A model generated the notes under the pieces. It was not told the DNA's origin and did no database searches. It saw only the letters and a program-made list of their open reading frames with translations. Both the position numbers and the translations under genes were made by a program. From Mytilus trossulus (taxonomy: Eukaryota), in NCBI RefSeq assembly GCF_036588685.1, contig NC_086386.1, positions 21,576,001 through 21,640,000 of the forward strand: a DNA stretch of 64,000 bases. Direction: 5' to 3'. This document shows, in pieces, positions 8,401 through 36,115 of this stretch; within the stretch, counting starts at the first letter, position 1, and each line of letters starts with the position of its first letter.

Positions 8401-11400
8401 GCATCGACTAAGGGGGTACAACAAAGAATGTTAATAACATAATATATTCCTCTGCATTAAAAGGACTTACAGTATGCATCTTTTGTATTGTCTTATATTT
8501 CCTTTAAATCACGCATATCGAACATAACTCAATATTTAATTGACAAATTGTGAAATTAGACTTCAAATTCATGAAATAACAGGCATTGAATAAGTTAAAA
8601 GGTCTTTTAGTTTAAGTCTTATTTAGTAAGATATAATTGTAATATTACGAAAAGACATGAAACGTGCATTAAAAATGATTTATATGTGCGCACGTGCATG
8701 ATAGAATGGTTCATTTTAGTTAAAAAAAACTTTATAAAAAGAAACATTTACAATGTATATGTTATGTTTTCTTTTATATTAAACATTTATTATTTATTCA
8801 AAATTATATTTTCCAGAATGATTTGTTAATAAACCATTATAAGATTCTCTGGGGGGGGGGGGGGGGGTACAAATGATTAAACCTATATATGCAAGTTTGC
8901 TGACTTCATTTAAAAATATTAATATTGGTTATTACTGTCTCTTTTAATTAATTTGTTGTTATTGAAAGAAAGCAATCTTTATTAACGAATAAATTTAATT
9001 CTTTACTCAGGAGGGATTGTCAGACCCTCTGTGTTTTTTTCGCTCCCGAGTTTAAATTTCTGATGGTTGTTAAAAAAATTGTGCCAGAAATGTCACAACA
9101 GAATCCGGATAAATGGGAAAATCGAATTACAAAAATATAAATAAAAGATCAGATAAACAGGATTGAGTGTATTATACGTTGGTCATTATGTCTGATAAAG
9201 CTGTCACCTGGCTACCATAAAATTTTACTCAATAATGCAATATAAAGTCAAATAGGTCATTTGTGAATTGAGAAATTAGTAAAGAAATTTTGTCATAATT
9301 TAATTAGAAATGATGAAAAATAAGTAATTTATTAAAGTGATTGGCCGTCATATTTATTCATATCAGATATTTTATATAGAAAAGCTATTCTTAATTTTCA
9401 ATGACGTGTGTTTCGAATTGAACGTGACAACTTAATGCTAAAAATATTATAGTATACTCAAAAGTTAAAGAAATATATTACTAACTTCTAGTTTATTTTT
9501 ACAGTTTTCACATTTAGATTCAGATCTAATTTTATTCAAAATAAGAAGGCGTCAATGCAAGTTCCTGCAATTGAGATGTATATATTTTTTATTGTTAACA
9601 ATGACAATATTGATGGTATATGCTTCTTTGTTGAATGTAGAGGATATTTTTAACTCTGCTACTGAATTTATACAAAGTCGTGTCCAATTGTAATTAATCA
9701 CCACCTACTATCCATGATGTTTCTATTTATGACCCTTTGCCATTCATACATAATCCGTCATGTGCATACCACCTTCAAAACTTATTTCTCTTTACAACTA
9801 ATGTTTGCGAACCACTGTCACAAATCATCATTCCAACCAATAGAAACAAGTAAAATGAAAATAGCGTACAGCAGTTAACATTGTGTGTTCATCTTAATCT
9901 CTATAAAAACAAGCAGGTATGTCAAAAAAATCAACAAAAATGCATTAAAACAAACCACATCAGCAAAATCAAAAGACTCGAATACAAAATTTTCCCGTCG
10001 AACAATTAATGACAGAATGCATAATGAAGAGAGCCACGTCAAATTGATATCGCCAAACATAGATTAAACAGTAAAAAGTATAATTTACAAAGATGAGTAA
10101 AAGAATACTATAACACGTTATCATCCCTTTGTAAATTCTTCAGACGCCATCACGAGTTCATTGACCGTTATGTAATAACCGTTTCACAAATAAAATCGGA
10201 TATACTCTTTATGTTGTAACTACAATACCCTTCCCTTTTCACGAATGTGACCTGCCAATTATTTACCGAATTTGTAATAACATAAGCAACACGATGGCTC
10301 TGTACTCCGGATCATCTAGAACCCCCAGATTTTGGTGGGGTTTGTGTTGCTTAGTCTTTAGTTTTCTATGTTGTGTCTTCTGTACTATTATTTGTCTGTT
10401 TGTCTTTTTTTCAGCCATGGCGTTGTCAGTTTATGTTCAATCTATGAGTTTGACTTTCCCTCTGCTAATTCGTCCCTATTTTATTAAGAAGATAAACAAA
10501 GTCAATACCTTGATCTAAATTTCAAGACCATTGTGATCATTTGTGCAGTTAATACAGAATATTTATCAACAAGGTCTTGGTATTTATCTGATAAATTCTC
10601 TTAGAAAAAGGACGAGACGTTTTTACCATACACCTGGTTCATCAACTGTCTGCTCAGACACTAGTGACGTTTTACAAAGTGTGAATAGCAGCTGAAAGTT
10701 CATGAAAACCGAATGAGTTTGGAACTGTTTATACTATATGCCGGTGGAGTTGGTGGGGGAAATCGAAGTTCCGCCTCTTATTTAATTCTGTTGACCACGT
10801 TATTATCTGTGAAATCTGTTTTCAAAACATCACTTATTGGAAACACAGTTTCAAAATACTGATGAATTCAGTCGCGGATTATGCCAGTCATAACGTGCAT
10901 AATGCCCAAAATAATGAATTACTGCAGTAAGGTCATTGATAAATTATTAGAATTAAAGTCTATGTATACACATGCTTCATCGATCTTTATACCCAAATGT
11001 TGCTGAGCTCTTGTTCTACTTCAATAACAAATATTTTAATATATCCGCATTTTAAAAACCCCAAACAATATCGTTTTTGTGTGAAAATCTCATTGCATCA
11101 ACTGTTTAATAATGAATGAGGTATTGACACTTCACATAAGAACTCAACATATACCCCACCACACTTACGAACGAAGAAATCAATAATAAGAAATCTCTTT
11201 CTTAATTATCAGAATCAATTTTATCACAAATCAAAGTTGGGCATAGAAGTTAATTTAAAAGTTGTCTACTCTATGGGCCGTGTGAATCAGATGTGAAAAC
11301 CTAAAATTTGTATTTCGTTGAACATTTGAGTTCGTGGTTCTCCTGTACCCAAGAAATCTACGAAAATTGGTATCCAACGAATATTAATGAATCCACAGTA

Positions 11401-14004
11401 TACAAGAAAGCTATTACACCAGGGTTCAAAGTCGTGAAGTTGATGGTATGCCTCCAAAACCTTTGCAAATGGCAACTGTTTACTCTTTTTGTTTTGCCGT
11501 TAAGGAATAATTGCAGTAACCATAATTCCGTCTGTTCGGTCATATTTCTGTCCACGTCACTTTGGTCAGCTCTTAATAAAATTGTACATCACAACTTTTC
11601 TACATACGAGAATGCCTGTACCAAGTCAGGAAAATGACATTTGTTATTCATTCGTTTGATATGTTTCAGCTTTTGATATAGTTTTTTGATTAGGGACTTT
11701 CCGTTTTGAATTTTCCTCGGAGTTCGGTATTTTTGTTATTTTACTTTTGTGTGTGACACCATATACGTTGATTCTAATAACCATATATATCATCGAAGTC
11801 ATAATGAATGAACTAATGTTAATAAGTTTGACCCGAACTTATCAAGTAATCTTTTGATTTGCTGGTGCAACAAAGAAAACACTTCTTTTATCATGCAAAA
11901 TACAAACGTACAACAATCATCTAGTTGTCTGCATATTGATATTGTAACATTTAATAAAATATCAATGTGCAGACCCCCTGATAATCAGAAGATATTTTTC
12001 CTCGTATCAATCCGTCTTCACCGAATTATACTTTATCAACGAATTTGTAATTAAATTAAATTATAATTAAAACGACGGATGCACCATGTTACCAATCCGA
12101 TCAGTGTGTGATGGAGTACGTTCTGCTCAGCGGAGGCTGTTGTTTGTCTTATGCTCGTTGTTTTTAATTGCTATTGCATTTACAATTTGTTTTGTTTCGA
12201 TTGATGTGTTTGAGCTTTGGATTTTGCCATTTGATTATGGACTTTATGAAGTTTCCTTGGAGTGCAGTATTTTTGTGATTTTACTTTTCATTATGAAAGA
12301 CTATTTTGATGTAGTGTTGTACATTTTGGTTCTTTTGGTGCACATCTAAATTTATAGTAATTAATTTGAAAATTAAAATTGTTAACCTTAAGAAAAGTGA
12401 TAACTTTAGCTGCCCAGTGAACCTTTGGCATGTCCCTCTTATTATAATTTTTGCCAAATACTGAAAATGTGCCAAGCCTTTATACTTAAGCTCGGCATCA
12501 ATATGCATTCATATGTCTTTTTTTTAAAGAAAGCACGACATTATAACATTATAACTTTAGACCAAACTAATACATATACAATATTGGTTAATGTCAGGAA
12601 AATATCATTTGTTTTTGTATGAGGCTAAGAAAGTGGGGAAGGGCGAGGTTCTACCATGTTGTTAACCAGTTTTGCGCCGAGTACAAAAAAGTTGATATTT
12701 TTCGGACATTGAACTAATATTGTTTTTATACTGCAACTTAAATTAATACATTGCTAGCTTTTTTAATCGAAACACAAATGTCAAACTTATTGTCATCCCT
12801 GATTGAGGAGAAAGTGTTCCATGATGAAATTTACATGATACCAAATATAGCTTTGTTACTATAATTAGGAAATAAACACAACTAGTTGCAGTATAAATAC
12901 CAATGCTCATTTTTTTTGTAAATATTAAGCTGACTGTGAAAACAATAAGTGAAACTTGGCTCTGCTTTCTTTTCGATGTCAATAAAATCATGACAGGATT
13001 TATATGTATTATAAAAACAATCAAAATGTTAAGTGACCTTTTTTTAATTGTTAAACAAGAAACCCAACAATAAACAAGAATCAATATGTATATTTTATAT
13101 CAAGTATAGCAACGAAAGATTCTTTCCTTCGAAAAAATTCCAGATAAATTCAAATAATCAAATAAGAAAAGAAAATAAGCAATTCTCGTTTGTAAAGTTA
13201 AAACAATAAATAAAAGGCAATACTTTCAGAAATATGTATGCTAACTTTGGTCTCTTTCTTTCTCTCTCTTAATATCTTTTTTTCGATCCCCCTCTACATT
13301 GATCGTGGTATTCCCTTTACATACGAAACATGCGAAATGAACTAATTAAATCGATAATAAATGATATGAGTGTTCAAAACTATGACATCAACCTCCTATG
13401 CATTATTTGATTGTGTTTCTGATGTTATGCCAAACACAGAAATTACTTGCTTTTATATTACCAATTAGAAATTGTCTATCAATTAAACATCTGGAAATAA
13501 ACTTGAATAAAATATCGATTGATCTTTCAACTTTGTGTTTCCTCAACTTTTGAATCATAAGGGTTTTCAAAGGTGCTATAGTTATGTTGGTAAAATTTCG
13601 GACATCTATAATTGTAAAGACGGGTTGATATTTAAAAATAAAATTTTGGGATCATTTTTGCACTTGGTCCAGGGACGTGGTCTAAGTAAAAATACTAATG
13701 CAACGCACAAAAGTGACGAAGTAGTTATCTGATGGCATAATTGATTTTATAATAACTGAAACTAACATTTCCGTCGACATTTTGTTTTTAATTTTGTTTT
13801 AATTGAGATGAGCTTTTTTACACAATTTGCCGTACTCAAAACAATAGCTAATAGATAGACCAAACTCTGAAGTCTTATAGAAAGACACACAATTTAGACG
13901 CCATTCGATTTATATCATACGTAATGCAATGGCAATGATAATGATAAATGAATAATGCAAACTGAGCTGCTAGTCTCTCAACTTTACGATAATCAGGAGA
14001 AAAC

Positions 14005-15579
14005 TCAATAGTAAGCATGTTTCAAACTATTTGCTCGTGGAGCCACATTAACCCTTCTAGGTCTTGGTGTTTTCCGCGGTGTTTTCACAGAATCAAATCG
14101 TTCAGCATCATTTACATGTCCAGATTTCTTACATTTTAAACAACATATAATTATAGTGATCAACAACAATAAAAATCCACCACCACCACCTGCTGCGTAA
14201 TACATTAACATATTTGGCGCTTCCGGTGATTCTGGTTCCTTGGTTTGTGAAGGAACAGTCGACATTGTCAAAATCGTAGACGATGCTGTTGACATAGTTG
14301 TCGTTACCATCCTCGTAGTTGTCGGCGTCGTAGTTGGCGTTGTAGTTGGCAGCGTTGTTGTAATTGTTGTTGGTGCCGGTGTGGTTGTTGTGGTTGTTGT
14401 AGTTGTCGTCGTTGTTGTTGTTGTTGTTGTTGATAAAATTACATTAACATCAACAGTCCTTTCATCTTCGCCGAACTTCGATGATACCGATAACGTCCAG
14501 TTGCCACGGTCGGCTGATGAAGTGCCAGCAATATACAAACTACCGTTCACGTCCACGTTATGTCCATTTTGTTGTAAAGAGGAAGACGAGAACGGGGTTC
14601 CAGTCGGATTTATCCACTTGACAGTTATTGAATCGCCTTTTATCGTACAGTTTATAAATACAGACGAACCTTCATTCACTGTTACTTTTGTTTTGTCACA
14701 ATATAAAATTTTTGGAAGTATCGGATCTAGTTTAGGATCAGGAACATTGATTAATGAAATGTATTGAAGATTTGCCGGTGAATCGCAAATAATGTTTCCT
14801 ATACTGAACACGGAACTGAAGGACACTGACATGTTTTTCAGCCATTTGATTTCCCAGTTACATTTCCAAGGGTTATTTCCAAGATGTATGCTCCCCTTCT
14901 TTGTCACTATTTGTGTGAATAGTGACGACACATTAGATGGAATTGTTGTTAATTGATTTCCGGAAAGATCAACATGCTTCAAATTTGTCAGCGACGATAG
15001 AACAGTCCAGTCCAGTGTTTTTAATTTATTGCCATGAAGATCGAGAGTGGTAAGACTTTGCAACGGTTTTAGCAAAATTAAATCAAGCGTATCCAAGTCC
15101 ATTTCACCTAAGCGTAGCTCTAATAAAGTTGATAATCCATCAAATGTATTCGGTTTAATGTCACAGTTTATATTTCCCGTCAGATCGAGTGCTGTTAACT
15201 TTGTTAATCCTTGAAATGATGTCTGTGTTAATGTCTGAATTTTGTTGAACTCTAAATTCAATCTTTTCAATTCGGGTAATGTTCTAAATGCTCCAGCGTC
15301 CACTGCATCAATCCCACAATACCTCATTATTAAATGGGACATTCTGGAAGATGAAAACGCAGACGGACTGAGATGCCCAAATGAATTTGGACTTGATACG
15401 CTGCCTGAAATTGTCAACGCTGTGATTGCTGTCGGGAGATTGTTTGGAACTCCACTTATTTGGGTGAATGCACATATTGTTACTTTTGACGAACATTTAC
15501 ATCCTTGACGGCACTGCTGACTTTGAGCTGACGAAACTAGCTGAACAAATATTACCGCTTTCATAAATTGTAGATACAT
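14005..15579 (-). CDS. LRR-Ig type I transmembrane protein, 524 aa, paralog of 2784-4226, with longer Thr/Pro stalk, TM helix and ~43-aa basic cytoplasmic tail; intronless CDS
   Basis: Same ectodomain as the plus-strand copy; TM MLMYYAAGGGGGFLLLLITIIICCL followed by KCKK stop-transfer; tail ends ...SLKHAYY. Confidence 0.93.
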   Translation of the reverse strand: MYLQFMKAVIFVQLVSSAQSQQCRQGCKCSSKVTICAFTQISGVPNNLPTAITALTISGSVSSPNSFGHLSPSAFSSSRMSHLIMRYCGIDAVDAGAFRTLPELKRLNLEFNKIQTLTQTSFQGLTKLTALDLTGNINCDIKPNTFDGLSTLLELRLGEMDLDTLDLILLKPLQSLTTLDLHGNKLKTLDWTVLSSLTNLKHVDLSGNQLTTIPSNVSSLFTQIVTKKGSIHLGNNPWKCNWEIKWLKNMSVSFSSVFSIGNIICDSPANLQYISLINVPDPKLDPILPKILYCDKTKVTVNEGSSVFINCTIKGDSITVKWINPTGTPFSSSSLQQNGHNVDVNGSLYIAGTSSADRGNWTLSVSSKFGEDERTVDVNVILSTTTTTTTTTTTTTTTTTPAPTTITTTLPTTTPTTTPTTTRMVTTTMSTASSTILTMSTVPSQTKEPESPEAPNMLMYYAAGGGGGFLLLLITIIICCLKCKKSGHVNDAERFDSVKTPRKTPRPRRVNVAPRANSLKHAYY

Positions 15580-16137
15580 TGTTATAAATTTTAAAAAAAA
15601 TATTCAAAATTTGAATGTTCTAATTTTTCAATTCTATTCAACTCCCGTGTCCAATACTCTCCTATCAAGAATACTCTACGATAACTTCGAATAATTCGAA
15701 TTTATATTTTCTCGTGAATATATACAGGAGAGTCGAATCAATTATAAATATGATAGATAAGATTGAAAGTTTTTATATATTACTTATTTATGTGACTGAT
15801 TTAAGGCCATACATACATACATATTAGTTTTTCTTTCTTCTATCTCGTATTTGTTTTGATTTGTAGGTGTATATGTCAATATTCGCACATTATTCGTCGA
15901 TGTAACTCGCAGCATTTGTTTAAAGAGATAATGCTTATCATTTTTATGAGCGATACAAGCATTTTATTGGACTGTATGTAAATGCTTTTGTGTGGGTTCC
16001 TGGTTCAAAAATATAAGAAAATAGGAAGTCGGTATCTTTATGAAAGTTTTCCCACTTTACATATAATCGAGTTGATACTGTGTATTTGAACAATTTTAAA
16101 ATTGTAAATTCTACATAAGGATATATTATTATCGTAT

Positions 16138-18583: not shown

Positions 18584-19164
18584 AAGGAGTAAGTTCGGTA
18601 AGGGCCATATTTGGCCCCAATTATAAAGTTCATAGTTACAAGACAATAAATGTTTTAAGTTGCCTTAAAGACATGTTAGAAAGTTAAACAGAACTGTTTT
18701 TGTCAAAGTTTAATTCTAACACGTTGATTTTTACATCCAAAAAAGGTCAAAATAAGGGATTTTGGGGAAATTTGACAAAATCAGTAAGATTTCAACCAAA
18801 TAAAGGACCAGGAAACATAGAGCGCAGGCGTCGACTAGCTTAAGATTTAAATAAAGGATGTGAAATGTCTTCACAAACATTATTTTAAAAGATCTTTGTT
18901 GTCGACGCATGCGCTCTATGTTTCCTGTCCAATTATCTATGGAAATTTACCCATTTTCATTGATTTTTTCGTGAAAAATCAATATGAGTACAACTTTTGA
19001 CGTCATAATGAAACGCAGAAACGTAAAATTTTCAACAAAATGGTTTATATCCTAGCTAGTCAATGTATTAGCTGTAATTTATCGTGATATTGGTCGATAA
19101 ATCTGAATTTGAAATTTACGCTAAAAAAGGGGGCCATTTTAGGACCTTATCGAACATACTCCTT
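18584..19164. mobile_element. MITE (581 bp) with ~35-bp imperfect TIRs, an internal inverted repeat and a 4-bp TSD (TCCA)
   Basis: Left TCCA|AAGGAGTAAGTTCGGTAAGGGCCATATTTGGCCCC; right GGGGCCATTTTAGGACCTTATCGAACATACTCCTT|TCCA; internal IR AGGAAACATAGAGCGCAGGCGTCGAC (18810-18835) / GTCGACGCATGCGCTCTATGTTTCCT (18901-18926). Confidence 0.85.
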
Positions 19165-19329
19165 TCCAACTCATCAAGGGGCGAATTGCAATTTAAATCA
19201 GAAATTTAAAAACATTTATAACTTTTTTAAATCTTTACAGGGACAAATATCTTTAAACCCAATGAATTTATTTATCAATATGAAATGCATTATTCAAAGA
19301 TATCATGTGTTTCTTCACTTAGCACTTAA

Positions 19330-19740
19330 TGATGTGTGTGAAGTTAGCAGCCGGTTCGTTATTCGATATTCGATATTCAATATCCAACCGGCTGCTAGCA
19401 GTCGGTTGGATATTCAAAATTAAGTTGAAAATAAAAAAGGAATAATACTTAATAACATTAAAAGCATGATGATTTTTATAGTAAAAAGAACTGATAAGAC
19501 ACGTAGGAAATAGTTTCATGACCTCTTCAAGCTGTCGCATATTCTCGTTGTTCTCGAATATAAACCCTTTTCTAATTTGCATATTTGTCTAAATGTAATA
19601 TAGATTGTTGTCAATAAAAAAAAATCAAAGAGGTACAGTACTTTTACACAGGATTTTTCTTAAAAACAAAAACAAAAACCGATTACTCTAGAAAACAATT
19701 AGGATTATAAATAGAAATATTTATGGAAAGCCCATAAAAG
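19330..19740 (+). repeat. Left terminal inverted repeat, unique portion (~410 bp)
   Basis: Reverse-complement match to ~28190-28597; outer ~90 bp nearly identical, inner part clearly more diverged (e.g. CAAGCTGTCG, GAATATAAACCCTTTTC, TATAAATAGAAATAT.TATGGAAAGCC conserved). Confidence 0.9.
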
Positions 19741-22357
19741 AAATATACAGTGAAAAGCTACCTGAGACCGCTTAAATGAGGGTGAGACCCCCCTGGTCTT
19801 TCAATGTCCACAAAATTTAAGAAAATCATAGACTCTGTATATATAAAGGTTGTATCAGAAGGATTGCCAAGAATAATGTCATATTCGATATCTATGGAGG
19901 GCTTGTCACTTTTCAGCTAAAAATTATCAAAATTTTAGGACAAAGAGTACAGGGCAATAGTGAGAGCCCCCTAATTGCTCAATCTGTCTAATATTTTGCA
20001 GACATTTAGTCATTAGGTAGATACACACGTGACTAAAAGGAATATGGGTAGACTTTCTGTCTTTTATGTTTACGGAGCGCCCAAAGTGCCAGTTAGATAT
20101 TCAAAATATATAGTGAAAAGCTACCTGAGACCGCTTAAATGAGGGTGAGACCCCCCTGGTCTTTCAATGTCCACATAATTTTAGTAAATCATAGACTCTG
20201 TATATATAAAGGTTGTATCAGAAGGATTGACCAGAATAATGTCATATTCGATATCTATGGATGGCTTGTATTGTCACTTTTCAGCTAAAAATTATCAAAA
20301 TTTTAGGACAAAGAGTACAGCGCAATAGTGAGAGCCCCCTAATTACTTAATCTTTCTAATATTATGCAGACATTTAGTCAATAGGTAGATACACACGTGA
20401 CTAAAAGGAATTTGGGTATACTTCCTGTCTTTTATGTTTACGGAGCGCCCAAGGTGCTAGTTGGATATTCAAAATATATAGTGAAAAGCTACCCGAGACC
20501 GCTTAAATGAGGGTGAGACCCCCTGGTCTTTCAATGTCTACAAAATTCAAGAAAATCATAGACTCTGTATATATGAAGGTTGTATCAGAAGGATTGCCAA
20601 GAATAATGTCATATTCGATATCTATGGAGGGCTTGTATTATCACTTTTCAGCTAAAAATTATCAAAATTTTAGGACAAAGGGAACAGGGAAATGGTGAGA
20701 GCCCCCTTATTGCTCAATCTTTCTAATATTATGCAGACATTTAGTCAATAGGTAGATACACACGTGACTAAAAGGAATTGGGGTAGACTTCCTGTCTTTT
20801 ATGTATACGGAGCGCCCAAAGTGCCAGTTGGATATTCAAAATGTACAGTGAAAAGCTACCTGAGACCGCTTAAATGAGGGTGAGACCCCCTGGTCTTTCA
20901 ATGTCCACAAAATTTAAGAAAATCATAGACTCTGTATATATGAAGGTTGTGTCAGAAGGATTGCCAAGAATAATGTCATATTCGATATCTATGGAGGGCT
21001 TGTATTGTCACTTTTCAGCTAAAAATTATCAAAATTTTAGGACAAAGGGCACTGGGCAATGGTGAGAGCCCCCTAATTGCTCAATCTTTCTAATATTATG
21101 CAGACATTTAGTCAATAGGTAGATACACACGTGACTAAAAGGAATTCGGGTAGACTTCCTGTCTTTTATGTTTACGGAGCGCCCAAAGTGCCAGTTGGAT
21201 ATTCAAAATATATAGTGAAAAGCTACCTGAGACCGCTTAAATGAGGGTGAGATCCCCTGGTCTTTCAATGTCCACATAATTTTAGGAAATCATAGACACT
21301 GTATATATGAAGGTTGTGTCAGAAGGATTGCCAAGAATAATGTCATATTCGATATCTATGGATGGCTTGTATTGTCACTTTTCAGCTAAAAATTATCAAA
21401 ATTTTAGGACAAAGGGCACTGGGCAATGGTGATAGCCACCCTAATTGCTCAATCTTTCTAATATTATGCAGACATTTAGTCAATAGGTAGTTACACACTT
21501 GACTTAAAGGAATTTGGGTAGACTTTCTGTCTTTTATGTTTACGGAGCGCCCAAAGTGCCAGTTGGATATTCAAAATATATTGTGAAAAGCTACCTGAGA
21601 CCGCTTAAATGAGGGTGAGACCCCCCTGGTCTTTCACTGTCCACAAAATTTAAGTAAATCATAGACTCTGTATATATAAAGGTTGTATCAGAAGGATTGC
21701 CCAGAATAATGTCATATTCGATATCTATGGAGGGCTTGTATTGTCACTTTTCAGCTAAAAATTATCAAAATTTTAGGACAAAGGGCACAGGGCAATGGTG
21801 AGAGCCCCTAATTGCTCAATCTTTCTAATATTATGCAGACATTTAGTCAATAGGTAGATACACACTTGACTTAAAGGAATTTGGGTAGACTTCCTGTCTT
21901 TTATGTATACGGAGTGCCCAAAGTGCCAGTTGAATATTCAAAATATATAGTGAAAAGCTACCTGAGACCGCTTAAATGAGGGTGAGACCCCCCTGGTCTT
22001 TCAATGTCCACAAAATTTAAGAAAATCATAGACTCTGTATATATGAAGGTTGTGTCAGAAGGATTGCCAAGAATAATGTCATATTCGATATCTATGGAGG
22101 GCTTGTATTGTCACTTTTCAGCTAAAAAATATCAAAATTTTAGGACAGAGGGCACAGGGCAATGGTGAGAGCCCACTAATTGCTCAATCTATCTAATATT
22201 ATGCAGATATTTAGTCAATAGGTAGATACACACGTGACTAAAAGGAATTTGGGTAGACTTCCTGTCTTTTATGTTTACGGAGCGCCCAAGGTGCTAGTTG
22301 GATATTCAAAATATATAGTGAAAAGCTACCTGAGACCGCTTAAATGAGGATGAGACC
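19741..22357 (+). repeat. Tandem array of a ~367-bp unit, 7 full copies plus a partial, highly similar to each other
   Basis: GTGAAAAGCTACC.GAGACCGCTTAAATGAGG recurs 8 times; near-identical ORFs at 20507 and 20874 are 367 bp apart. Confidence 0.95.
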
Positions 22358-22384
22358 AAAGTATAGTTTTTATATATATAAATG

Positions 22385-22925
22385 ATTGTATCAAAAGTGG
22401 AATGTTCTTGAACGGACTGTTTGCTGCCGATCAGATCAGACCAGAACCCTAGGCCTAGTAGAATCGATGACCTAGTTTCAAATACAAACCGTCACTATAG
22501 GTTGAAGGGAAAACATACAGACCTTTATCACGCACCTTCACACAGCTCACACAACCACCCCTTTTGATGTAAAATCCAGGTCCAAATGCATTGTTGATCT
22601 CTTTTTCACACAGACAACACCTCATGCTGACATGAATTGTGTTCGCCAACATAGGAAGGGCTCGCATTGCCCTTTCCGCTAACATGGATAGGAATCCACT
22701 TTCTTTTTGAATGTTTTTCTTCAATTGGTTAGTGCTTTTTTCCACTAGAATAATTTTGTAGGAGCTTGGTGATCTTTTCAATCAGTCACGGGGTAAGCAA
22801 CATCTTGTGTTCACCTTGCAGGTTTGTGTGTGATAAACGAATGGTGACCGGGAAAACTTTTTTGTCTGCTCTCTGTAATATTTAGATTGACCTTTTATAA
22901 AGTTCAAACCGTATTTCGAGAGACT
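22385..22925 (-). pseudogene. Decayed Polinton core/structural ORF (GGFL / GxGLYL-type, adenovirus pX-like motif)
   Basis: Fragments across frameshifts: EYGLNFIKGQSKILQRA..VTIRLSHTNLQGEHKMLLT; QKESGFLSMLA; DKGLYV..SDGLYLK; GSGLI..NSPFKNIPLL. Confidence 0.6.
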
Positions 22926-22931
22926 ATTTAT

Positions 22932-23423
22932 TCATGCCTCGCGAAGATGGAAGCGGATGGTGAAATGTTTTCTTCCGAGATTGTGGAGGATCGCCGTCTG
23001 GATCAGTGAGGTATGTCTGCATGCGATTGATGGTTCTCAAGATCACGGGTAAGTACACCATATTTTTGGGGGGTTTGAATGATCTTTACCCCAGGATCGA
23101 TTGCGGGGGGGGGGGGGAGCTTCAGATAGTGGACTGTTGGGTGCCGTGTATGTAGCTGCTATTGATGATGCCACTGTTCACCAGGATGCTGTTGATTCTT
23201 CTGATGCTAACAATGTATTCACCCTCTTTGTAACATGTGTTGCCCGATCAAATGTGTAGAGCTGTCTCTTAAATCCCAATGTGGTGTTCGATTCCTTAAA
23301 TTGTAGTTGGGGGAGGGGGTTGAACCGAGTACAAATGCGACTGTCGTTTCCAGAGACAAGGATGGAAAACCCTTGTTTTTGGTCTGTGTTGTGGACGATT
23401 TGCTGCAACAGTGTGGTGTCCAT
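22932..23423 (-). pseudogene. Decayed Polinton minor capsid protein (penton), internally deleted
   Basis: N-terminus MDTTLLQQIVHNTDQKQGFSILVSGNDSRICTRFNP; C-terminal fragments VNSGIINSSYIHG..DPGVKIIQTP..NMVYLPV..TINRMQTYLTDPDG..FTIRFHLREA*; lies directly downstream of the MCP remnant. Confidence 0.7.
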
Positions 23424-23430
23424 TTATTTA

Positions 23431-24146
23431 TTAAAACACGACGTTCAACTACTGACCGACCGATTCGAACTGGAGGCCTAGGCCTCCTACGGAGATTGGA
23501 AGTGCAAATGCTTCGATGTTGGCGGGAACATAACGCTCGAATTCCGCTCGAATCTGGATGTCCGCTCGGACTGATGACTTACATCGATGACAAACAGCGG
23601 CTATATGTCAATGAAATCAGAGGGGTTGACACCACCGTTACTGAGGAGGGTGTCAATGTTGTAGAATTTCTTTCTGGAGTCTACATCCTCCTTGAACACT
23701 CTGGCAACCTTGTTTTGTGAAAAAAACGGCATTAAAGTCGACGGCTGAGTAGCGTTCACCTTTGAGGGTGACATGGATATTTTGCAATCGACAGCGATTG
23801 AACACGGAAGCATTATGGGTTTTGTCATTATCTCTGTCGGTTTGAAAGGCAACGATAATATATCTTCGCTTTTCTTGACCACTATTGGCAGCTAGGCGGC
23901 AGTTAAACGGTGAGGCTTGGGGAACGGCTATGAAATCACACTGTCTCATGCAAAATCCACAGAGGATCGTGGATTTTTTCTGGATGGTTTTGTACAGTTG
24001 CATCTTGTTTTCGTCTGCAGGAGTGACACTCAAGAGTTGGTAAGTTGGGCGCCGGCTTAAGGTTCGAATTCGTGAAGCTGGTATTAATATTTTTGAAGAC
24101 TTTCATCGAAGGTCAACCCTTCTGTGATTGTAAGGATGTCAGACAT
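23431..24146 (-). pseudogene. Decayed Polinton major capsid protein (double jelly-roll), large internal deletion
   Basis: Start MSDILTITEGLTFDESLQKY; C-terminal half RQCDFIAVPQ..EKRRYIIVAFQT..NASVFNRC..ERY; PLFVIDVSHQSER; FERYVPANIEAFAL; contains stops and frameshifts. Confidence 0.8.
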
Positions 24147-24159
24147 TATGTATTTATGT

Positions 24160-24480
24160 ATAGCATTGGAGGAAGTTGGGATGGTACCGATGCCACGACC
24201 AGAGATGAGATTGTTTAACTGGGTTTGGTTGTTGGGCTTTCTGCATTTAACACTGGGCTTGCTGCGTTGGTCAATGGGTTTTCGAGTGCGGGTCACTTTG
24301 TCAACGACATGGTTGACGACTACCACCTACCACTCCTATCATGGCTGCATTGGTGGCAGTGCTCATAGGCCTGCTTTTCAATGTCTTGGCAGCAGAGGAG
24401 GTGAACATGCGACCTGCGATACTGGCGATAGCGTCAAAAAACTTCTACCACCGTATGCATACTTTCGAGCAAAACCTTTC
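24160..24480 (-). pseudogene. Decayed small Polinton virion-core-type ORF with Gly-x-Gly motifs
   Basis: KGFARKYAYGGRS / FDAIASIAGRMFTSSAAKTL (amphipathic) ... QLNNLISGRGI, immediately upstream of the MCP. Confidence 0.5.
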
Positions 24481-25391
24481 TTAATTGAGGATATTTCGAT
24501 GGAGTTGCTTATATTCCTTGATGCTGATGTGTTCCCCTTTCTTTATGGCATCGAGGATCGCCATAATCGCGTTGCGCACACCATTGTTTCCAGCACGGTA
24601 TGCAGTGTTGCACAGATCCAAGCGATAGAGGAGCTGGTCAAAGTCGGAGGGTAGAAACACGGTTTGAAGTCCGCTACAATGCTTATTTTGCTTCTTTAGT
24701 TGTGAGACACAATCTTCGTCCACTTTTAGATCTTTATCGCCTTAGGGTTCTCGAGAGGGTTAATTGCCTTGATACATGGCACCGGAACTGGGACAACATC
24801 CCTAATGCGCCTTGAAATGAGGAACTCAAAAGTCACGTGTAAAGCAAAAATCTCTGTGTAGTGATATTGGACATGTTTCTATTTTTAGCAAGTGACTGAA
24901 CTTATAATTGTTTGTGGTGATTAGAAAAATAGAGGAACATAGAACGAATGTATAAAAACTATGGAGCTATTGAATGTGTTCAAAGTATTAAATTTTCAAA
25001 GAACTTATTGTGTTAAAAATGGGATATTTTACCACAAGGAGCCGCATCACAAAAGGTTGTTCGGGGTTTGCTAATTTACGGAAAAAGTTATCTCACTTCG
25101 TACCCCGAAAATTTAACCACATGTGTGAAAATGTCACAGCTTCGAAACGAGCTATCATACATATCCAAGTTAACGATATGGACTGAGCTACAGGAAAAAT
25201 CGTTACCATTACCGCCTATGTAAAAACAATTTAAGATTTTGACCCAACTGTTCAGGAATTTCTGGAGAGTCGACAAGGTCTTTTCGAGGCGATGCTGCAT
25301 GTTATTGGCTTGAATCTTCCGCTTGATCTCTTGCAACTCCCAGGCGAGCGCCTCACACTGTTTAGGGTCTGTTATCTTTATAAACGTTCAT
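24481..25391 (-). pseudogene. Decayed conserved Polinton ORF, interrupted by an AT-rich segment at ~24840-25130
   Basis: N-terminus (frameshifted) FIKITDPKQCEALAWELQEIKRKIQ; C-terminus SGLQTVFLPSDFDQLLYRLDL..AGNNGVRNAIMAILDAI, matching the PxDPxxLxxRLxL..AGN motif of Maverick-family proteins. Confidence 0.65.
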
Positions 25392-25823
25392 TTATTCAAA
25401 GCGTTGACGTGAACCTTCCTAAGTGAAGGGTTGAATACCTGTAAGCGTTTGTTTGAACGCCCCTAAGCGTTGGTTTGAACAGTTGTACCTTTCATGAAAT
25501 TATAGGCATATATCTATCGAAAGGTTAAAAAAAAACACATGCATTTTTGCTCGTTTTTCCATAAATTGAATTGAAAAGTTCGAGCGATAAATATTTGTTG
25601 ATAAACACTACAATAATTAATGGACCTATGGGTGGTACGGATAGAAAAAATACGGACTGTCAAACAGATAAATACCATATAAAACATGCTAAAAACAATC
25701 TAAATGTTCATATAACCCCACTAAGGAGGCTATATTATTCTTCAATTATCTAAAAATCTACTAAGTATTTCATTGTACAAAAACTTTCATATTTAAAAAA
25801 GTCACCATGGCCATAATGCGACA

Positions 25824-27020
25824 CTAAACTTCTAACTGTGTATTGCTACAGAACCTTATCGTTTTTTGTTTCAACCTTATCGGTAAATCAAAGCACTCAA
25901 AGTCCGCGTACACTACGAAAGGGACTCTCATCGGGTGGGTGTTGTTGACAAAAGTCAGCTGGTATGTTTTTTTTTTGGCAGCTCTGATTATGACTGCCTT
26001 GTGGTTGACGCAACACTCTTTGTTGGTTTCCAGAACTTCCTTGCTATAAACGTGGTTCAAGCACATGTAGCCTTCGATCAGCAGTAAGTTGGGTTCTCTC
26101 TCCCTCTGTTCAACAACGTTTGAAATGTGCAGCGGGTATACTTCACTATCATCTATTCTAAATACATTAACCGCCAGGGTGGAATTGGTCTTCTCAACTT
26201 AATTAATATCCTTAAGGCTTACCAGATTGAGCTCTGTGTAACACTGTCCGGTTGTTTTGGTCTACCTGCAAGGCCGAAAGTATGGCCCACTTGAAACACT
26301 CCTCGTCGTTATTTTTCACATTGATTACAGCCTTCTTGGATTTGATCCATGCTTGCTAATCAATGTACTGTGACCTACCCAGCGGTCGTTGGTAATATTG
26401 ACTTGAAATTTTACAATTGCTTTCGATGTCCAGTCACTTTTGTCAGAGGTCCACTGTGCAATCTTCTCTCCGATCTTTTCATCCATCTTCTCAATGGTTT
26501 CAAGCAAGTCCGTGGTTGAGGGGAAAATCTGGTTTCCCGAGTGAAAGTATCCCACATTCTCATCATCCATCTTACCTGTTGGGTTAATCTTCACAGTGCA
26601 GCATTACATTGACTTGTTATCCTTTCAATGCCCAATCGTCTATAAGTTCCACCCTTGACATCTGAGAGACCTCAAGGAAGGTCTTCACATCCATCTTTCA
26701 GGTAGTAAATACATCTTTAAAGGCTTTCTTCAGTTGATGTACCTCAATTTTATCCCCAATGATTTCCTATCTTCTCTGATCTGTTCCTGTAACTTCTCCA
26801 GTAGTCGATCTTTCGACATCCTGCTAACCTCTATCAACTCATGCTGTTTGGCTTGGGTGATAATATCCTTCTTAGTATAGGGTTGGGACAACGCTAAAAA
26901 AATGTTGGTCTTCGTTACGATCAACTGATCCAACTGATCCTTCCTCATCCGGAAGTACCATCGGCGGTGGTTCATTTTGGCAATTCCACTCAGGGCTTTG
27001 ACGTTTTCAACAACTAATTC
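25824..27020 (-). pseudogene. 5' remnant of Polinton protein-primed DNA polymerase B; catalytic domain deleted
   Basis: Two Rho-N/HeH-like repeats (YFRMRKDQL; VSRMSKDRLLEKL); GYFHS..SDW..VNI; KKAVINVKNNDEECFKWAILSAL; LAVNVF; CLNH..C..H; VPFVVYADFEC (exonuclease I motif), then homology stops. Confidence 0.8.
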
Positions 27021-27340
27021 CAGCTATTAATAGCTATTGGATCGACGTCTTAATCTTTATAACAATCCAAAATAAAATCAATTTGTCTCACCCAAAACCA
27101 ATATCCACGATTAAATGGTTTTTAGACCCAGCTTTTGATCTTTCGATCCTATCGTCCATATCAAAATATATAAAATTCGTGGTAACCATAACCGGTGCGC
27201 CTGGTTTTTTTCATCCCATAGCTCACAATTTGCCGAGCTCAATCGGTCTCTCTCTTTGTCAAGACGGTGGTCAGCTGCTTGTTTAATCTCTCACAACACC
27301 AAGTAGGGATGGTTGCCCCCTTCCAACATCAGGTTATAAT

Positions 27341-28190
27341 GTCTGCCTACCTATTAACTAAATGTCTGCTTAGTAATACAAAGATTGAGAGATTAGAGGG
27401 CCATCACCATTGCCCTGTGCCCTTTGTCCTAAAATTCTGATTATTTCGGCTAAAATGTGACAATATAAGCCCTCCATATATATCGAATATGACAATATTC
27501 TGGGAAATCCTTCTAATACAACCTTCATATATACATAGTCTATGATTTTATTAAATTTTATAGACATTGAAAGATTAGGGGGGTCTCACCCTTATTAAAG
27601 CGGTCTCGGGTAGGTTTTCGCTATATATTTTGAATATCCAACTGGCACTTTGGGCGCTCCGTAAACATAGAAGACCGGAAGTGTACCTAAAGTCCTTCTA
27701 GTCACGTTTGTATCTACCTATTGACTAAATGTCTGCATAATATTAGAAAGATTGAGAGATCAGGGGGCTCTCACCATCACCCTGTGCCCTTTGTCCTAAA
27801 ATTTTGACATTTTTTGACTGAAAAGTGACAATCTTAGCCCTCCGTAGATATTGAAGATGACGTTTTTCTGAAAAATCCATCTAAAACAATCTTTATATAT
27901 ACAGGGTCAATGATTTGGTTGAGTTTTATGGACATTAAAAGACCAGGGGGGTCTCAACCTCATTTTAGCGGTCTCGGGTAGGTTTTCGCTATATATTTTG
28001 AATATCCAACTGGCACTTTGGGCGCGCCGTAAACATAGAAGACCGGAAGTGTACCTAAAGTCCTTCTAGTCACGTTTGTATCTACCTATTGACTAAATGT
28101 CTCTTAAATATTAGAAAGATTGAGAGATCAGGGGGCTCTCACCATCACCCTGTGCCCTTTGTCCTAAAATTTTGACATTTTTTGACTGAA
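27341..28190 (-). repeat. Inverted array of the same ~367-bp unit, ~2.3 copies, more diverged from the left-arm copies
   Basis: ACTAAATGTCT recurs at ~27357, ~27725 and ~28093; ORF 27370-27567 (-) is a diverged version of the 20507/20874 ORFs. Confidence 0.93.
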
Positions 28191-28597
28191 ATTTTGTTTT
28201 TTTGGCTTTCCATATATATTTCTATTTATAGTTATAAATATTTCTGGAGTTATTGGTTTTTCTTTTTGTCGTAAGAAATATTATACACAAAAGTACATCT
28301 TTGAAGTCTTTTTTGTGACAAAACTCTATGATACATACAGACAAATAAGTCGCACGGAAAAGGGTTTATATTCAAGGACAACGAGAAATTACGACAGCTT
28401 GAAAAGGTCATTTTATGATTCCTACGTATCTAATCAGTCCTTTTTACTATGAAAATCATGCGTTTTATGATATCAAGTATTTAATTTTCTTATGATTTTT
28501 CATTTAATTTTGAATATCAAACTGGCTGCTAGCAGCCGGTTGGATATTGAATATCGAATAACGAATAACGAACCGGCTGCTAACTTCACATACATCA
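28190..28597 (-). repeat. Right terminal inverted repeat, unique portion
   Basis: Reverse complement of 19330-19740; ends ...CACATACATCA followed by CTTAA. Confidence 0.9.
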
Positions 28598-29735
28598 CTT
28601 AATGTATCTACACTTAATGTATCTAAATCCAAATAAGCGCTTTGGAGACACAATTAAGGTTTAAACTAATATTGCATGATACTAGCAGTGGGTTAATATA
28701 TATCACTGCGGGTGGTATATCAGTCCCTAAGTGTAGCATCAGCTCATGATAAGTTAGTTCGAGTTTCGGAACAGACGTTATTTATCATATAAGTATTATT
28801 CGTCGATCATTGTCAGATGTCATTTGTAAACTCTCTACATGTGCACTTCATAACAAATTGAACAAAACTATGCAGGGATATTTTGCTTATAAAACTTCCT
28901 CATTTCGTTTATGATCGATTGATTTATTGATTGTTGTTATTTGATTCGAGTCCAGTGGCAAATGGTGTTTGTATGATAAAGACAAGAACGAATTTACAAT
29001 TTACAATGATTACAACAGTGGGAACAGGTAGGTTCTGTGGGAAGGGATCGGTTGGGGTGAGAGACAGCAAATTTGAACAGTCAGTGAAAATGAGAGACGA
29101 AAGAGGACAACGCCATGACTAAAAAAGAAAAGGACAAACAAACAACAGACAACAAATCACAACATAGAAAATTAAAGTAACACGAACCCCACAAAAAACT
29201 GGTTACCCGTCTAGTTTCACATATCGAATAAAAAAAAATGGGAATACGTCTCATTTGGTAGGTCACATTCAGGGAAAAGAAAGCGCTTGTAGTTACGACA
29301 TTAGGATCATATCCACTATAATCTGTGAAACGATTATTCCATAACGGTCAATCAGCTCGTAACGGCGTCCGTATCATTTACGAAGGTATGGTTGAAAAAT
29401 TAGGATATGTTGGATAACCAAAGGTATTTTGATTTAAAACTTAATTTTCTGCCGAATGGGAAAAGCTTCCGTGCTTCATACAAAATGTACATCGGTCAAC
29501 ATTTTAAAATACACACAATAAATTTACAAAAAGAAGCATGTGATTTTTAAATCCAACTCGTGATTGCGTCCACAGTTAAACAAATTGAAAGTTACAAGTG
29601 ATAAATTCAGGCCAATCTTATTCGCGTCGGTTCATTTAATATCTTAGCCGTATTTGGCAAAACTTTTTTGGAATTTTGGGTGCTCAATGCTTTTCAACTT
29701 TGTACTTGTTTGGCTTTTTAACTGTTTTGATATGA

Positions 29736-31397: not shown

Positions 31398-33991
31398 TTA
31401 TGTTTCCCAAATTTTGTTGTTCTGTACTAAGGTTCGTTTTGCTTTCTTTATCATTTTTCTGAGCACGTCCAGTTCAGATGTCACTAATTGGTCACAGAAA
31501 TGACGAGTCATTACGAACTCGGAGTTCCATTCTGATTTTTCTATTGTGCAGGAACGTTTTTTAATATTCCTGCAAAATTTGTGCACACTTGCAATTATTT
31601 TCTTAAAATGTCGTACTTCAGTATAAAAAGAATCATTCTGTTGAGTTATTTGATTTTCGAGACGTGTTTTGAAGAAGTCGTACAGTAAATTATCAGCATT
31701 GTTCAGATTCCTGACGATGTCTATGTCTTCTCTTGTCAGATTTGGTTTGACGGTATTCCGCCATATCCCTTTGTTAACCGGTTGATACAGTATATCTTGT
31801 ATATCCCAGCATAAGTACCTTCTCATCAAAACCAGAGATTCGTCGAAAAGCTCAGTTATGATTACAAGTTTGAAATCCTTATCAAGTTCCCGGATGTATT
31901 CTAGAACAAACGAAGTATTTGATGTTTTTGATTTGGGGATACCGAAGTCATACGACATTCCATTAGTAAAAGACCGCCCTATAGCATACTGTTGGTATAC
32001 CTTCTTCACTATAAATTCGTGTAAAAGCAAACTCCGTTTTATATTTGGAAATTTCCTCATAACAAGTTTATTAAAGCTGAAGTGGTAAAACGCAGACTTG
32101 AATACTGATAATGGATCACGAAGTATTCCGATGCGAACTGTGTCGTTTGGCATAATCTTCTCAAAATCTTGTTTATTATAAATTGCATGGTTGCAAAGAA
32201 TGTTATAAGACATATTTTTCGGTAAGCGAAGTACTGTTTCTTTCAACTTTAAATATTTAGATGATAGATAATTAAACATAGAGCCATTGTCTCTCTTTGG
32301 AAGAACCATATTTAAATTGTTGGCTTGTACAAATCTTGTAAAAATTCCCCATGCTGTTGTACTCCCTGTTTTGTGAACTTTTACGAATATCACATTTCTT
32401 TGTTTATTGCACGTGTTCTCTATCAATTCATTCGGCATATCGTCTGCGTACGATTTTCTTACAAAATATCGATCTGGTATTGCTTTAAAAGCTTTTGATG
32501 TCATTGCCCTCTTTTCTATTCCGTCCAAATTATGAGATGTCCACTGTATTTTCGAGTTAACATTTATATTGGATTTATGTATTATTACAAAAACCACAAT
32601 TACGAATAATCCGATTATCCTGAAATGTAAAAAAAATATATTTTAAAAACAATATGTTAAAATTCGAGTGCATTATCCATGAGAACAAAATAAGTAATTT
32701 AGCTTTAAAATGTATAAACTTATTTGTATGTTGTTACAGAAAAGACGGATAAGGTTTTCTATTTACTATTATCATTAATATACAAATTAATAATACCAAT
32801 TGTATACATATAGGTTAAGATGACCTTCTTTAACATTAAACTTCATTCATATGCAAGATTGTATTTTTCTATAACCTGCTGTTGCGTAAATCTGGACCAT
32901 AGCATACAATTAAGTTAACCTCATTCATGAAATATTTAGGTCAAGTCGTGAAAATTTTAACATAATCAAGAACATTTTACCATAAAAAAAACTACCAATG
33001 AAATTATAAAATAATATCTGAAATATGTTTCCTCTTAAACTGACAAAATTATTGAGTATTGTCATATGAAAAACTAATAACTTTCAGATTTATATTAATC
33101 TAGCTATATCGTCAATATGTATCGCTTCATTTTAAGTCGATTAATATCGAGATATTTTAGTCGATTAATATGGGTCATACCAGTCGATTAAAATGGGTCA
33201 TATATCGAGTTACTTCACTTGTGAATGTGTATCAATTAGTCGATTATTCTTGTTCTGCGATTTTGGATTCTTATTGACTATATATAAATATATTCATTCA
33301 AATTGTTTTTAATTCCCAGTCTTTGTAAGAAGATTATCATAACATGGTTGAAACGAACCTAGTACCGACATAACCATCCTATTTTGAAGGTCTTTCGTTT
33401 CTATGGGTCTGTCAATTCGTGTAATATCTAGTTAACTCTTGGTAAGCAAATTACGGAGTTATCTACCCTTATTGTTTATTTCTAGTACATTTCAACCAAA
33501 TTATATGTTGAAATAACAAAACAGGAAAAAGAAACGATTATAGGACCATAAGTGTTTATCCTTATATCAATTATACATTTAAGTTCTGCGTTAGTGTGTT
33601 AAAATGGTTAATCTAAATTTTAAAATTCCAAACCAAACATGTGTTTTTATGAAAGGTTTATTGTAATTTGTAATATCAAAATGTCAGACTTAAAAAAATA
33701 CCAGTTATTAATAGATAACGTTCCTCAAAATGTAAAACGTCACAACATACACGCGCATTTCAGATATCAATATAACAAACGATTTGGAAGATATACAAAT
33801 ATTAGAAAAATCGCCACGTCTATATCATTGTGCCCGCCAATTGACAATGTATTTTTTTCAAATCTCAACCAGAAGCGACACGGGGTTTTGGAAGTCGAAT
33901 CTTAATATTTGGAAGATAATATAATTACTAAAACTAGACAATTTACTTACTTCCATGCTGAAAGCAATTTTTTCCAGTACACTAAAAGCAT
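31398..33991 (-). CDS. Galactose-3-O-sulfotransferase family (GAL3ST-like) type II Golgi protein; exons 33991-33951 and 32619-31398, ~420 aa
   Basis: 5'-PSB motif IFVKVHKTGSTT; YNILCNH; 3'-PB ILRDPLSVFKSAFY; ITELFDESLVLMRRYLCW; NNADNLLYDFF. A phase-2 intron (AA|gtaagt...tttcag|G) gives MLLVYWKKLLSAWKIIGLFVIVVFVII, a signal anchor. Confidence 0.92.
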
Positions 33992-34787: not shown

Positions 34788-35751
34788 AGTTCCAAACTTT
34801 ATTAAAATATAATATATAAAAACAATTACTTTTATTCATTTAGCCAGGTTTAACCTACCGGTCAAATCCCACGTATAAAGGTGGATCAAACAGAGGGCTG
34901 TGTATAAAAATAAATGATTTTCTATCGGAAAGTAAAAGTGATTGTTTAGATTTTTTTGTGCATTGGATACTTGACACTTAGAAAACAAATTGACACAAGA
35001 GGGTACGTCTTTAGTGCATTTGATTCCTTCTTTTGCAAAAAGGTAGAAATCTAAAGCTTAATGTATCTAAAGTATGATATTGATAATGAAAAATATCAGA
35101 TTACGAAGTACGTGTAGATGAGAAATATAAACCACAACTATTGGAAAATTGCTGTATTTTCTTCAATAGTTATCAAAGATACCCCATGATTATAATTTAG
35201 TACGCCAGACGCGCGTTTCGTCTTCAAATATGATAGAAAAGGCATTGCATATCAAGGAGAATCTATGAAGTCATGTAATGCTATTATGTATTGAATTAGT
35301 TTTAATAAAAAGAGAAATATCAGTAATTGTTAATGCGACTGCAACTGAACTGCACACGTTCACTGAAATGGAGACCTAGAGGTCATTAAATAGAAGTATT
35401 CAACTATTGACCATCGGTCACATATACCAAATACAAAATCTAATTTAGCGATGTCATGTACTTTAAAATTACAACATTACAATGGCTACGACAAATAACA
35501 TATCAATTGTGACACAAATTTTCTATAAAGGCCAACCAAATCCTTATTGCTAACTTTCAACATATTTGAAGTGCATGATGGCTTCAACATGGCCATTATA
35601 GAAACTATTTGTTCCTTGTAAATAGCAACCATGTATCAAGGAAGTCATCATGGAAATGCAGATCCTAGAACATTTAAATAAAATGCAATGTGCAAGTGAT
35701 TTTACTTTATTTTTTCAAAGGAAAACTCACAACGGGAAAATGAAATATTAA

Positions 35752-36115
35752 AACGAAGATATGGTATGATTGCCAATGAGACAACTATCCACAAAAGACC
35801 AAAAATGACACAGACATTAACAACTATATGTCACTGTACGGCCTTCAACAATGAGCAAAGCCCATATCGCATAGTCAGCTATAAAAGGCCCCGATAAGAC
35901 AATGCAAAACAATTCAAACGAGAAAGCTAACGGCCTTATTTATGTAAAAAAAATTAACGAAAAACAAGACCCGTTGGTGTCCTTCTGCTGTTGTTTTTTT
36001 CTATGGTCGGGTTGTTGTCTCTTTGATACATTCCCCATTTCCATTCTCAATTTTATGTAACACATAAACATACGACAACCACTGAATTACAGGCTCCTGA
36101 CTTTGGACAGGCACA
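35752..36115 (+). mobile_element. Interspersed repeat copy containing a nested ~87-bp fragment of another repeat end (35968-36054)
   Basis: Collinear with 51222-51500 apart from the insert, which matches 50586-50674. Confidence 0.8.

Follow-up and report, generated by a model that had tools for sequence, protein, structure and literature searches.

The arms of a transposon-like element in the mussel Mytilus trossulus carry tandem arrays in which a 16-nt word from the element's tip returns with every 367-bp unit. This raises the question whether the repeated word is a multiplied recognition site for a protein that handles the ends or a passive by-product of array growth. The locus lies within a stretch of 64,000 nucleotides (the window), which is AT-rich animal DNA. 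A sequence-only reading had described the word as an iteron-like terminal-hairpin motif and a binding site in multiple copies; as a whole, its observation was partly confirmed and its interpretation is partly supported.

Boundaries and layout of the element

Self-comparison of the window revealed inverted ends. Of the boundary pairs tested, only 19330/28597 combines a 5-bp direct repeat with termini that are identical (TG..CA) and begin TGATGT; alternative boundaries with 4- to 9-bp duplications were rejected because their termini were unequal. Both ends share one plan, a 91-bp tip followed by a spacer of ∼320 bp and then a tandem array:

19325..19329: left target-site duplication CTTAA, 5 bp (boundary-pair test)
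19330-28597: whole element, 9268 bp (∼9.3 kb), non-autonomous
19330..19420 (+): left tip, 91 bp, with TG terminus, outer arm, loop with 7-nt reiteration, middle arm and inner arm (arm analysis)
19421..19740 (+): left spacer, overall similarity to the unit not detected
19741..22357 (+): left array, 7.1 units of 367 bp, each composed of half A and half B (∼183 bp each)
22358..22397 (+): degenerate piece of half A where the left array meets the interior (score equalled by 5/300 shuffles)
27347..28191 (−): right array, 2.3 units of 368 bp, inverted
28192..28506 (−): right spacer
28507..28597 (−): right tip, carrying the 16-mer with one mismatch
28598..28602: right target-site duplication, 5 bp (boundary-pair test)

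Tip and spacer together form an inverted repeat of 411 bp with 79% identity in the self-comparison; the arrays extend it to arms of 1.25 and 3.0 kb. Comparison of left and right arms showed a tip that is constrained relative to a fast-changing spacer, with 86/91 identical positions in the tips vs 243/338 in the spacers (Fisher P = 1e-6). The arms are ∼14% (arrays) and ∼28% (spacers) apart, as against 2.5% between two right units, so they had probably become unequal before the present copy was inserted. They also enter the array in different phases, the left (19741) at the start of half A and the right (28191) at its end, both at look-alike words, which suggests a deletion between similar sites. 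A 15-bp exact tandem duplication (28596–28625) overlaps the right target duplication.

Broken Polinton-like genes in the interior

A capsid profile search of genome contigs yielded four loci (L001, L002, L003, L004) from 49 candidates. These are Polinton contigs inside bacterial genome bins, two of them near-complete, and are probably host contamination. L001 and L002 have no usable ends; L003 and L004, 93% alike and of one distant lineage, have both. The interior of the mussel element holds only broken Polinton-like genes, all on the minus strand:

22392..22878 (−): broken Polinton gene matching L001:5434-6036 (tblastn, E = 3e-23), which we take to be PZ-like
23002..23411 (−): broken gene matching L001:4309-5430 (tblastn, E = 2e-10), presumably minor capsid-like; Pfam gave no family
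23434..24149 (−): broken double-jelly-roll major capsid gene, internally deleted (PF21738, E = 6e-11)
24343..25387 (−): two small conserved Polinton gene fragments matching L001:8198-8677 and L001:7312-8208 / L002:578-1444
25878..26961 (−): B polymerase gene of Polinton type, N-terminal part only, broken (tblastn with the polymerase ORFs of P0007, P0008, L001, L003 and L004, E = 1e-11 to 1e-18); the stretch 26745-26961 was matched only by P0006

An integrase was not found with the L001 and L003 integrases (rve) as queries (best E = 0.66 and 0.079), nor were a packaging ATPase and a protease found in the element (best E = 0.45, 1.1 and 0.57), and no transposase family appeared among the 12 interior ORFs scanned. 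Rho_N domains head the related polymerases of P0007 and L001, although Pfam gave no Rho_N/HeH in ORF 26730–27023. The gene order differs from that of L001 and L003. An ORF downstream of the capsid gene in L001 (L001:11501-12682) gave no Pfam family; we take it to be reverse-transcriptase-like.

The 5-bp target duplication lies in the Polinton range of 5–8 bp given in the available part of PMC10748475. The terminal inverted repeats (411 bp, lengthened by the arrays) fall within the 100–1500 bp of Polintons/Mavericks, a double-jelly-roll major capsid gene is recognizable by PF21738, if broken, and of the protein-primed B polymerase only the N-terminal part remains, broken, with homology to Polinton polymerase ORFs. 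Excerpts of PMC8097293 describe three types of vertebrate Maverick end motif, (AGT)2, (AG)3 and (AC)3A, and a polymerase module that points inward; none of these motifs, defined on vertebrates only, occurs at the present ends (TGATGT). The length of 9268 bp is outside the 13–25 kb range of autonomous members and the element is therefore filed as a non-autonomous derivative. Further sources on Polinton features, available in part, were PMC6431247 and PMC8502044.

Folding of the tip and position of its words

The left tip folds with a z-score of −4.0 and carries three arms, the outer (∼19345–19357), the middle and the inner one (19397–19420). A hairpin of outer and middle arm is kept at both ends (−14.6 and −14.3 kcal/mol) and leaves the motif unpaired, whereas the hairpin of middle and inner arm, which holds it, reaches −14.5 kcal/mol at the left end and only −7.8 kcal/mol at the right. 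The name 'terminal-hairpin motif' is thus misplaced: the hairpin kept at both ends excludes the motif, and the one containing it is strong at the left only. The word had further been equated with the inner arm of the palindrome, to which it does belong, but the arm is longer than 19405–19420. The tip words and their array copies are located as follows:

19373..19384: second tip word, a near-palindromic 12-mer at the opposite end of the 48-bp inner dyad
19405..19420 (+): 16-mer, distal portion of the inner arm, with core 19409-19417
starts 20092, 20460, 20827, 21194, 21562, 21929, 22297 (20092..22312) (+): left-array 16-mers, at the end of half B
27627-27642 and 27995-28010 (−): right-array 16-mers
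28507-28522 (−): right-tip 16-mer, one mismatch
19881, 20244, 20611, 20978, 21345, 21714, 22081 (19881..22092): half-A 12-mers of the left array that match the second tip word
27479-27490 and 27847-27858: half-A words of the right array (array on −)

The left-tip 16-mer starts 76 bp from the element end, and the left tip also contains a reverse-facing copy (19373–19388).

Sharing of the word between tip and array

The recurrence of the tip 16-mer in every unit was borne out. It is exact in 5/7 left units and has one mismatch in 2/7, and it is exact in both right units that reach the motif (2/2), with a spacing of 367–368 bp throughout. Extended to 20 nt, the word is exact in 5/9 units and carries one mismatch in 4/9. 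At up to three mismatches we counted 15 matches to the 16-mer vs 3.2 expected, a number that 0/100 shuffles reach, the excess being mostly tandem repetition. One copy per unit and uniform orientation are not evidence, as tandem repetition yields both; the argument from copies 'all oriented the same way' therefore fails, and the tip has its reverse-facing copy as well. Plasmid iterons are closely spaced direct repeats of 17–22 bp (∼20 bp) that bind Rep at a bacterial origin beside the rep gene. The present copies share with them direct repetition of ∼20 bp, but they lie 367–368 bp apart inside longer repeats of an animal genome, and 'iteron-like' is a poor label.

What does carry weight is the match of tip and unit. 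Exact sharing of the 16-mer between left tip and unit was matched by 2/2000 shuffles, and the best 20-nt match reaches 18/20 for the left tip and 19/20 for the right (0/300 shuffles each). The longest exact word shared by the right tip, 12 nt, is weak by itself (94/2000 shuffles), and gapped local alignment of tip and unit gave an unclear signal, equalled by 42/300 (left) and 6/300 (right) shuffles. Tip-unit sharing is above chance.

Two tip words in a dimeric unit

Left units are 92–97% alike among themselves and right units 84–88% like left units. Each 367-bp unit consists of two related halves of ∼183 bp and is thus a dimer (half-to-half alignment z-scores of 7.1 and 3.6); halves A and B are identical at only 85/180 and 92/181 positions (∼50%). 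Their alignment, made without the tips, sets the register on the 48-bp dyad of the tip. Half B matches the last 20 nt of the dyad at 18–19 positions and half A the first 12 nt at 11, and over the middle 16 nt the halves match at 3–5/16, i.e. randomly. The A word sits 1 nt from where the A/B alignment predicts it. Of 734 registers two reach 11/12, one being the motif itself and the other the A word near the prediction; shuffles produced the A word in 1 and 0 of 20 000. Its register was noticed post hoc, the word first and the register second, and we rate the coincidence at ∼1–2%, not at 1 in 20 000. The deep tip match is ascertained, having been noticed because it was present. Islands of this kind are not what evenly spread decay of a common block would leave behind: retention of 19/20 positions at an assumed divergence of 25–30% has a P of 0.024–0.008. 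Their survival requires either selection on the words or local copying.

A degenerate 12-nt pattern built from the words, and fitted to these data, has 21 occurrences in tips and arrays and none across the 60.3 kb made up of spacers, interior and flanks. Among the left units, the sharing of 19 variants is patchy, as unequal exchange or conversion would produce.

The idea that the spacer is a diverged unit was discarded: it found no overall support (six global alignments, z −1.3 to 1.5), and the 20 nt past the tip motif match at only 6/20 and 8/20 ungapped. The last ∼50 nt of the left spacer are weakly like the end of a half-unit (right-arm anchored 22/50, reached by 187/20 000 shuffles). Searched with a profile of the halves, the tips score only E = 0.4 and 3.2, behind a hit in the flank (0.076).

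Conservation of the words within the present copy

Special conservation of the motif, said to be unchanged although neighbouring positions differ, did not withstand a per-column check. The 20-mer carries 3 variant states in the left array vs 3.25 expected, in a test with some power, as zero variants would have given P = 0.04. Of the left-array variants 41/60 are private, which neutral decay since insertion may explain; one change inside the 20-mer is common to two left units and was therefore copied. Over the columns shared by nine copies, conservation of the 20-mer has P = 0.22–0.25. Between the arms, the full right unit differs from the left at 46/369 columns and at 0/20 motif columns (P = 0.07), or P = 0.21 against the rate of half B, which holds the motif. 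Half B as a whole differs less than half A (12/182 vs 34/187, P = 0.0008), a contrast that the third right unit does not show (P = 1.0). The nearest left/right differences lie 24 columns away on the 5′ side of the 20-mer and 7 on its 3′ side, so its neighbours are unchanged too: the run around it spans 49 columns (a run of this length anywhere has a shuffle P of 0.048), and a motif-free run of 48 columns nearby in the unit is equally unchanged. A sliding-window result (6/373 windows as conserved between arms) was set aside because the most diverged right unit misses the motif and the two covering units are 97.5% alike; redone on one right unit, the test gave 68/369 unchanged 20-nt windows.

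The half-A 12-mer is identical in 7/7 left units (P = 0.14) and differs from the left form at 2/12 positions in one right unit and 1/12 in the other, the average rate. In the present inserted copy the words now decay like the remaining sequence.

Support for an array native to the element

Array sequence lies inside both ends in inverted orientation, was not found in the 54.7 kb of flank within the window, and is entered by 2/11 related tips found by translation. The sequence-only reading is thus supported in regarding the array as native. The related tips stem from a phmmer search whose query was a chance ORF spanning the left tip and which gave 13 hits; P0016 and P0018 were dropped, having no match to the window, and the other 11 are translations of related ends, i.e. 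protein-level records chosen by similarity. Several insertions are represented, since the sequence outside the tip is not the same in all of them. P0017 covers array start, spacer and tip in the arrangement of the left-arm junction (∼50% residue identity). P0013, which is a deletion derivative, joins half-A sequence to the tip in the orientation of the opposite arm. P0010 has lost the inner dyad and, like P0011 and P0020, is left out of the following tally, the tip being missing or not covered in frame. In the eight remaining tips the five codons over the 16-mer match at 27/40 vs 158/188 elsewhere in the tip (P = 0.024, although these records are not independent of each other); codons of the 9-nt core match at 22/24 and the edges of the 16-mer vary.

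The gene model P0006 of Mytilus edulis follows three collinear interior stretches with 87–94% identity in the best segments. The polymerase stretch missing from the element is missing from P0006 too, and the final 155 residues of the model have no counterpart in the window. P0006 is probably a sister copy of the defective element in Mytilus edulis. Its collinearity, the polymerase gap that both have and its continuation into sequence that the window does not contain make it probable that the genes had decayed before the defective form was copied. Alternatively, it may be an allele of the present locus with a long intron.

L003 and L004 have palindromes in their terminal inverted repeats (63 bp, imperfect), but no arrays and no tip word >14 nt that recurs inside; the layout is therefore not general to Polintons. 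A 24-nt stretch of the unit had 0 matches in a DNA scan of the genome-contig collection. Left tip, spacer and first unit gave no match to phages and one chance-level match of 47 nt to plasmids. Rfam gave 0 matches over 19000–29000. A chance ORF of half A, searched against longer proteins only, gave none, and a bacterial promoter scan, irrelevant here, found 1 vs 3.9 expected.

Recognition sites or relics

We propose a non-autonomous Polinton-derived element with foldback-style ends. An old monomer of ∼183 bp, which the half-to-half similarity shows to have doubled into the 367-bp dimer, would have carried both AT-rich words that bound the inner dyad of the tip; one word survives in half B and the other in half A, and each half would have kept its own. 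The patchy shared variants suggest that the dimer was then expanded and mixed via unequal exchange or conversion. The words, with a degenerate core of ∼9 nt, may be secondary double-stranded recognition sites for an end-handling protein, as in Galileo, and multiplied sites could raise end occupancy for an element that borrows its proteins. It is plausible that the units are binding sites. That they are old secondary sites built on a short core, whose number rose as the array expanded in a helper-dependent element, is our leading but tentative explanation, suggested by the sequence and by analogy. It is consistent with tip-unit sharing above chance, two words in register, the degenerate 12-nt pattern confined to tips and arrays, a constrained tip, the 22/24 core, probable mobility after gene decay and the Galileo precedent. 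On the other side stand the non-significant short-term conservation, a copied change within the 20-mer, an A word that varies at average rate, 16-mer edges that vary among related tips, P0010 without the inner dyad, a spacer not recognizable as unit, distant L003/L004 without arrays, and an element encoding no intact binding protein. The protein may be an integrase, a polymerase N-terminus or a host factor. To our knowledge, how Polinton ends are recognized for excision, priming and integration has not been worked out. Titration of, or competition for, helper proteins by motif copies found no support.

A possible alternative, to which we give less credence, is that the words are functionless relics in a native array: a tip patch copied once by template switching or conversion, or surviving by chance, and spread by homogenization. 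The motif indeed varies at average rate in the left array, an equally long unchanged block lacks it, and the mosaic of 19 shared variants indicates active exchange; moreover, the inner arm of the right tip is nearer to the unit (19/20) than that of the left (18/20), as local conversion would give. However, the second word at its predicted register must then be a coincidence (about 1–2% from 734 registers), and the middle 16 nt are random where passive descent would have left them similar. The pattern of islands thus favours old secondary recognition sites, held as a tentative view, over such relics, a lesser possibility.

It is unlikely that the ends belong to a cut-and-paste transposon of foldback type that captured Polinton fragments, with the words as its transposase sites. 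The layout is that of Tetris, Galileo and Rehavkus, the termini are TG..CA and not the three vertebrate Maverick motifs, the related Polintons L003/L004 have no arrays, and the gene order is unlike L001/L003. Against this, every recognizable interior gene is Polinton-like and on one strand, palindromes are present in the terminal repeats of L003/L004, and the 5-bp duplication is in the Polinton range of 5–8 bp, compared with 8–9 bp in Tetris, 7 bp in Galileo and mostly 4 bp in Ginger (available part of PMC2836005, which also calls the Polinton excision mechanism unknown). Vertebrate Mavericks likewise point the polymerase module inward, according to the excerpts of PMC8097293. Very improbable is a host satellite captured into both arms with chance resemblance to the tip: the ∼183-bp half-unit is satellite-like, and monomers of 160–180 bp, often riding in mobile elements, dominate the oyster satellitome in the available text of PMC8268682 (where one 1656-bp satellite is classed as Polinton-related), but the tip match is above chance, the two words are in register, the array is joined to tips in two other, diverged copies, and the flanks within the window have none.

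Comparison with known systems

Returning to the element as Polinton-derived with putative secondary sites, the closest parallel is Galileo (Drosophila, P superfamily; PMC3688188, PMC3573991), in which a tip site lies ∼70 bp from the end, as the 16-mer does here at 76 bp. Its footprint was found there, and matching bound sites occur in two of four repeats of the terminal inverted repeat (PMC3688188). Galileo differs in being cut-and-paste, with THAP transposase and 7-bp duplications; the present element has 5 bp, TG..CA ends, a Polinton interior and a dimeric 367-bp unit. Tetris/TIR-220 of Drosophila virilis, as far as the accessible text of PMC4079207 describes it, is also non-autonomous with a flanking domain and then tandem repeats in both arms, the repeats share a 37-bp stretch with that domain, and secondary sites were hypothesized; it differs by duplications of 8–9 bp, a non-coding middle and a monomeric 220-bp unit. 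Long modular inverted repeats with unequal internal arrays (7.1 vs 2.3 units here) and repeats sharing a stretch with the outer part, both typical of the foldback type (Galileo, Tetris), are found in our element; the 7–9 bp duplication and cut-and-paste transposase of the Galileo/P or Tetris families proper are not (5 bp, no transposase). Rehavkus of Tribolium likewise has inverted termini and variable subterminal arrays (6–8, up to 50 units) that can seed satellites, but no Polinton genes, and the available part of PMC12581902 reports no tip word in its units.

With Polintons/Mavericks (partial texts of PMC10748475 and PMC8097293; L001, L003, L004) the element shares terminal inverted repeats with a palindrome, the 5-bp duplication and capsid, polymerase and accessory remnants, whereas its 9.3-kb length, with all genes broken, its array-extended arms and an end motif unlike the three vertebrate types set it apart. 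Palindromes adjoin the target duplication at virophage/PLV ends (excerpt of bioRxiv 10.64898/2026.07.28.741278), and Gezel-14T has a direct repeat of >300 bp in its terminal repeat (excerpt of PMC11296320); these are protist or algal, often without pPolB, and an array with the tip word is not reported in those excerpts. Partial texts of PMC10294476, PMC11136912 and PMC12910113 served as further sources on bivalve and fly repeats. We found no published report of a Polinton terminal array repeating a tip word, though Repbase entries or supplements may describe the family. The layout is already known from Galileo and Tetris; the host element class is possibly new.

A natural element repeating a short tip word many times offers a candidate site for footprinting, and it widens the route from terminal arrays to satellite DNA, hitherto that of cut-and-paste foldback elements, to include a virus-like element. 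From the arrangement of the words one might go further and see a mussel Polinton lineage with foldback-style arms whose dimeric repeat splits the dyad into half-sites, one per half-unit, turning the arm into a ladder of putative recognition sites. This view is doubtful; if true, it would provide a ready probe for Polinton end recognition and would show defective copies outcompeting helpers through multiplied sites. If the word is a relic, the locus is an ordinary decayed transposon with expanded arms.

Surroundings of the element

An imperfect 181-bp palindrome (18777–18957), possibly a small foldback element, lies 370 bp beyond the left end. The genes at 2778–4226 (+) and 14005–15603 (−), both of LRR-Ig type with Thr-rich stalks, are inverted relative to each other and 92% alike over 1.19 kb. 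Host exons encode a galactose-3-O-sulfotransferase (31398–32642, −), cadherin repeats (43966–46782, +) and a C1q domain (52371–52799, −). Short dispersed repeats, 67–86% alike, occur at 595–741, 5360–5816, 10120–10427, 11596–12290 and 29106–29390. A separate dispersed family, 68–95% alike, occupies 35745–36124, 50363–50676, 51219–51633, 55177–55403, 56059–56374 and 62222–62589. The tip flanks of P0010 and P0012 match it at 36004–36072 and 50624–50683, which ties these records to a similar host.
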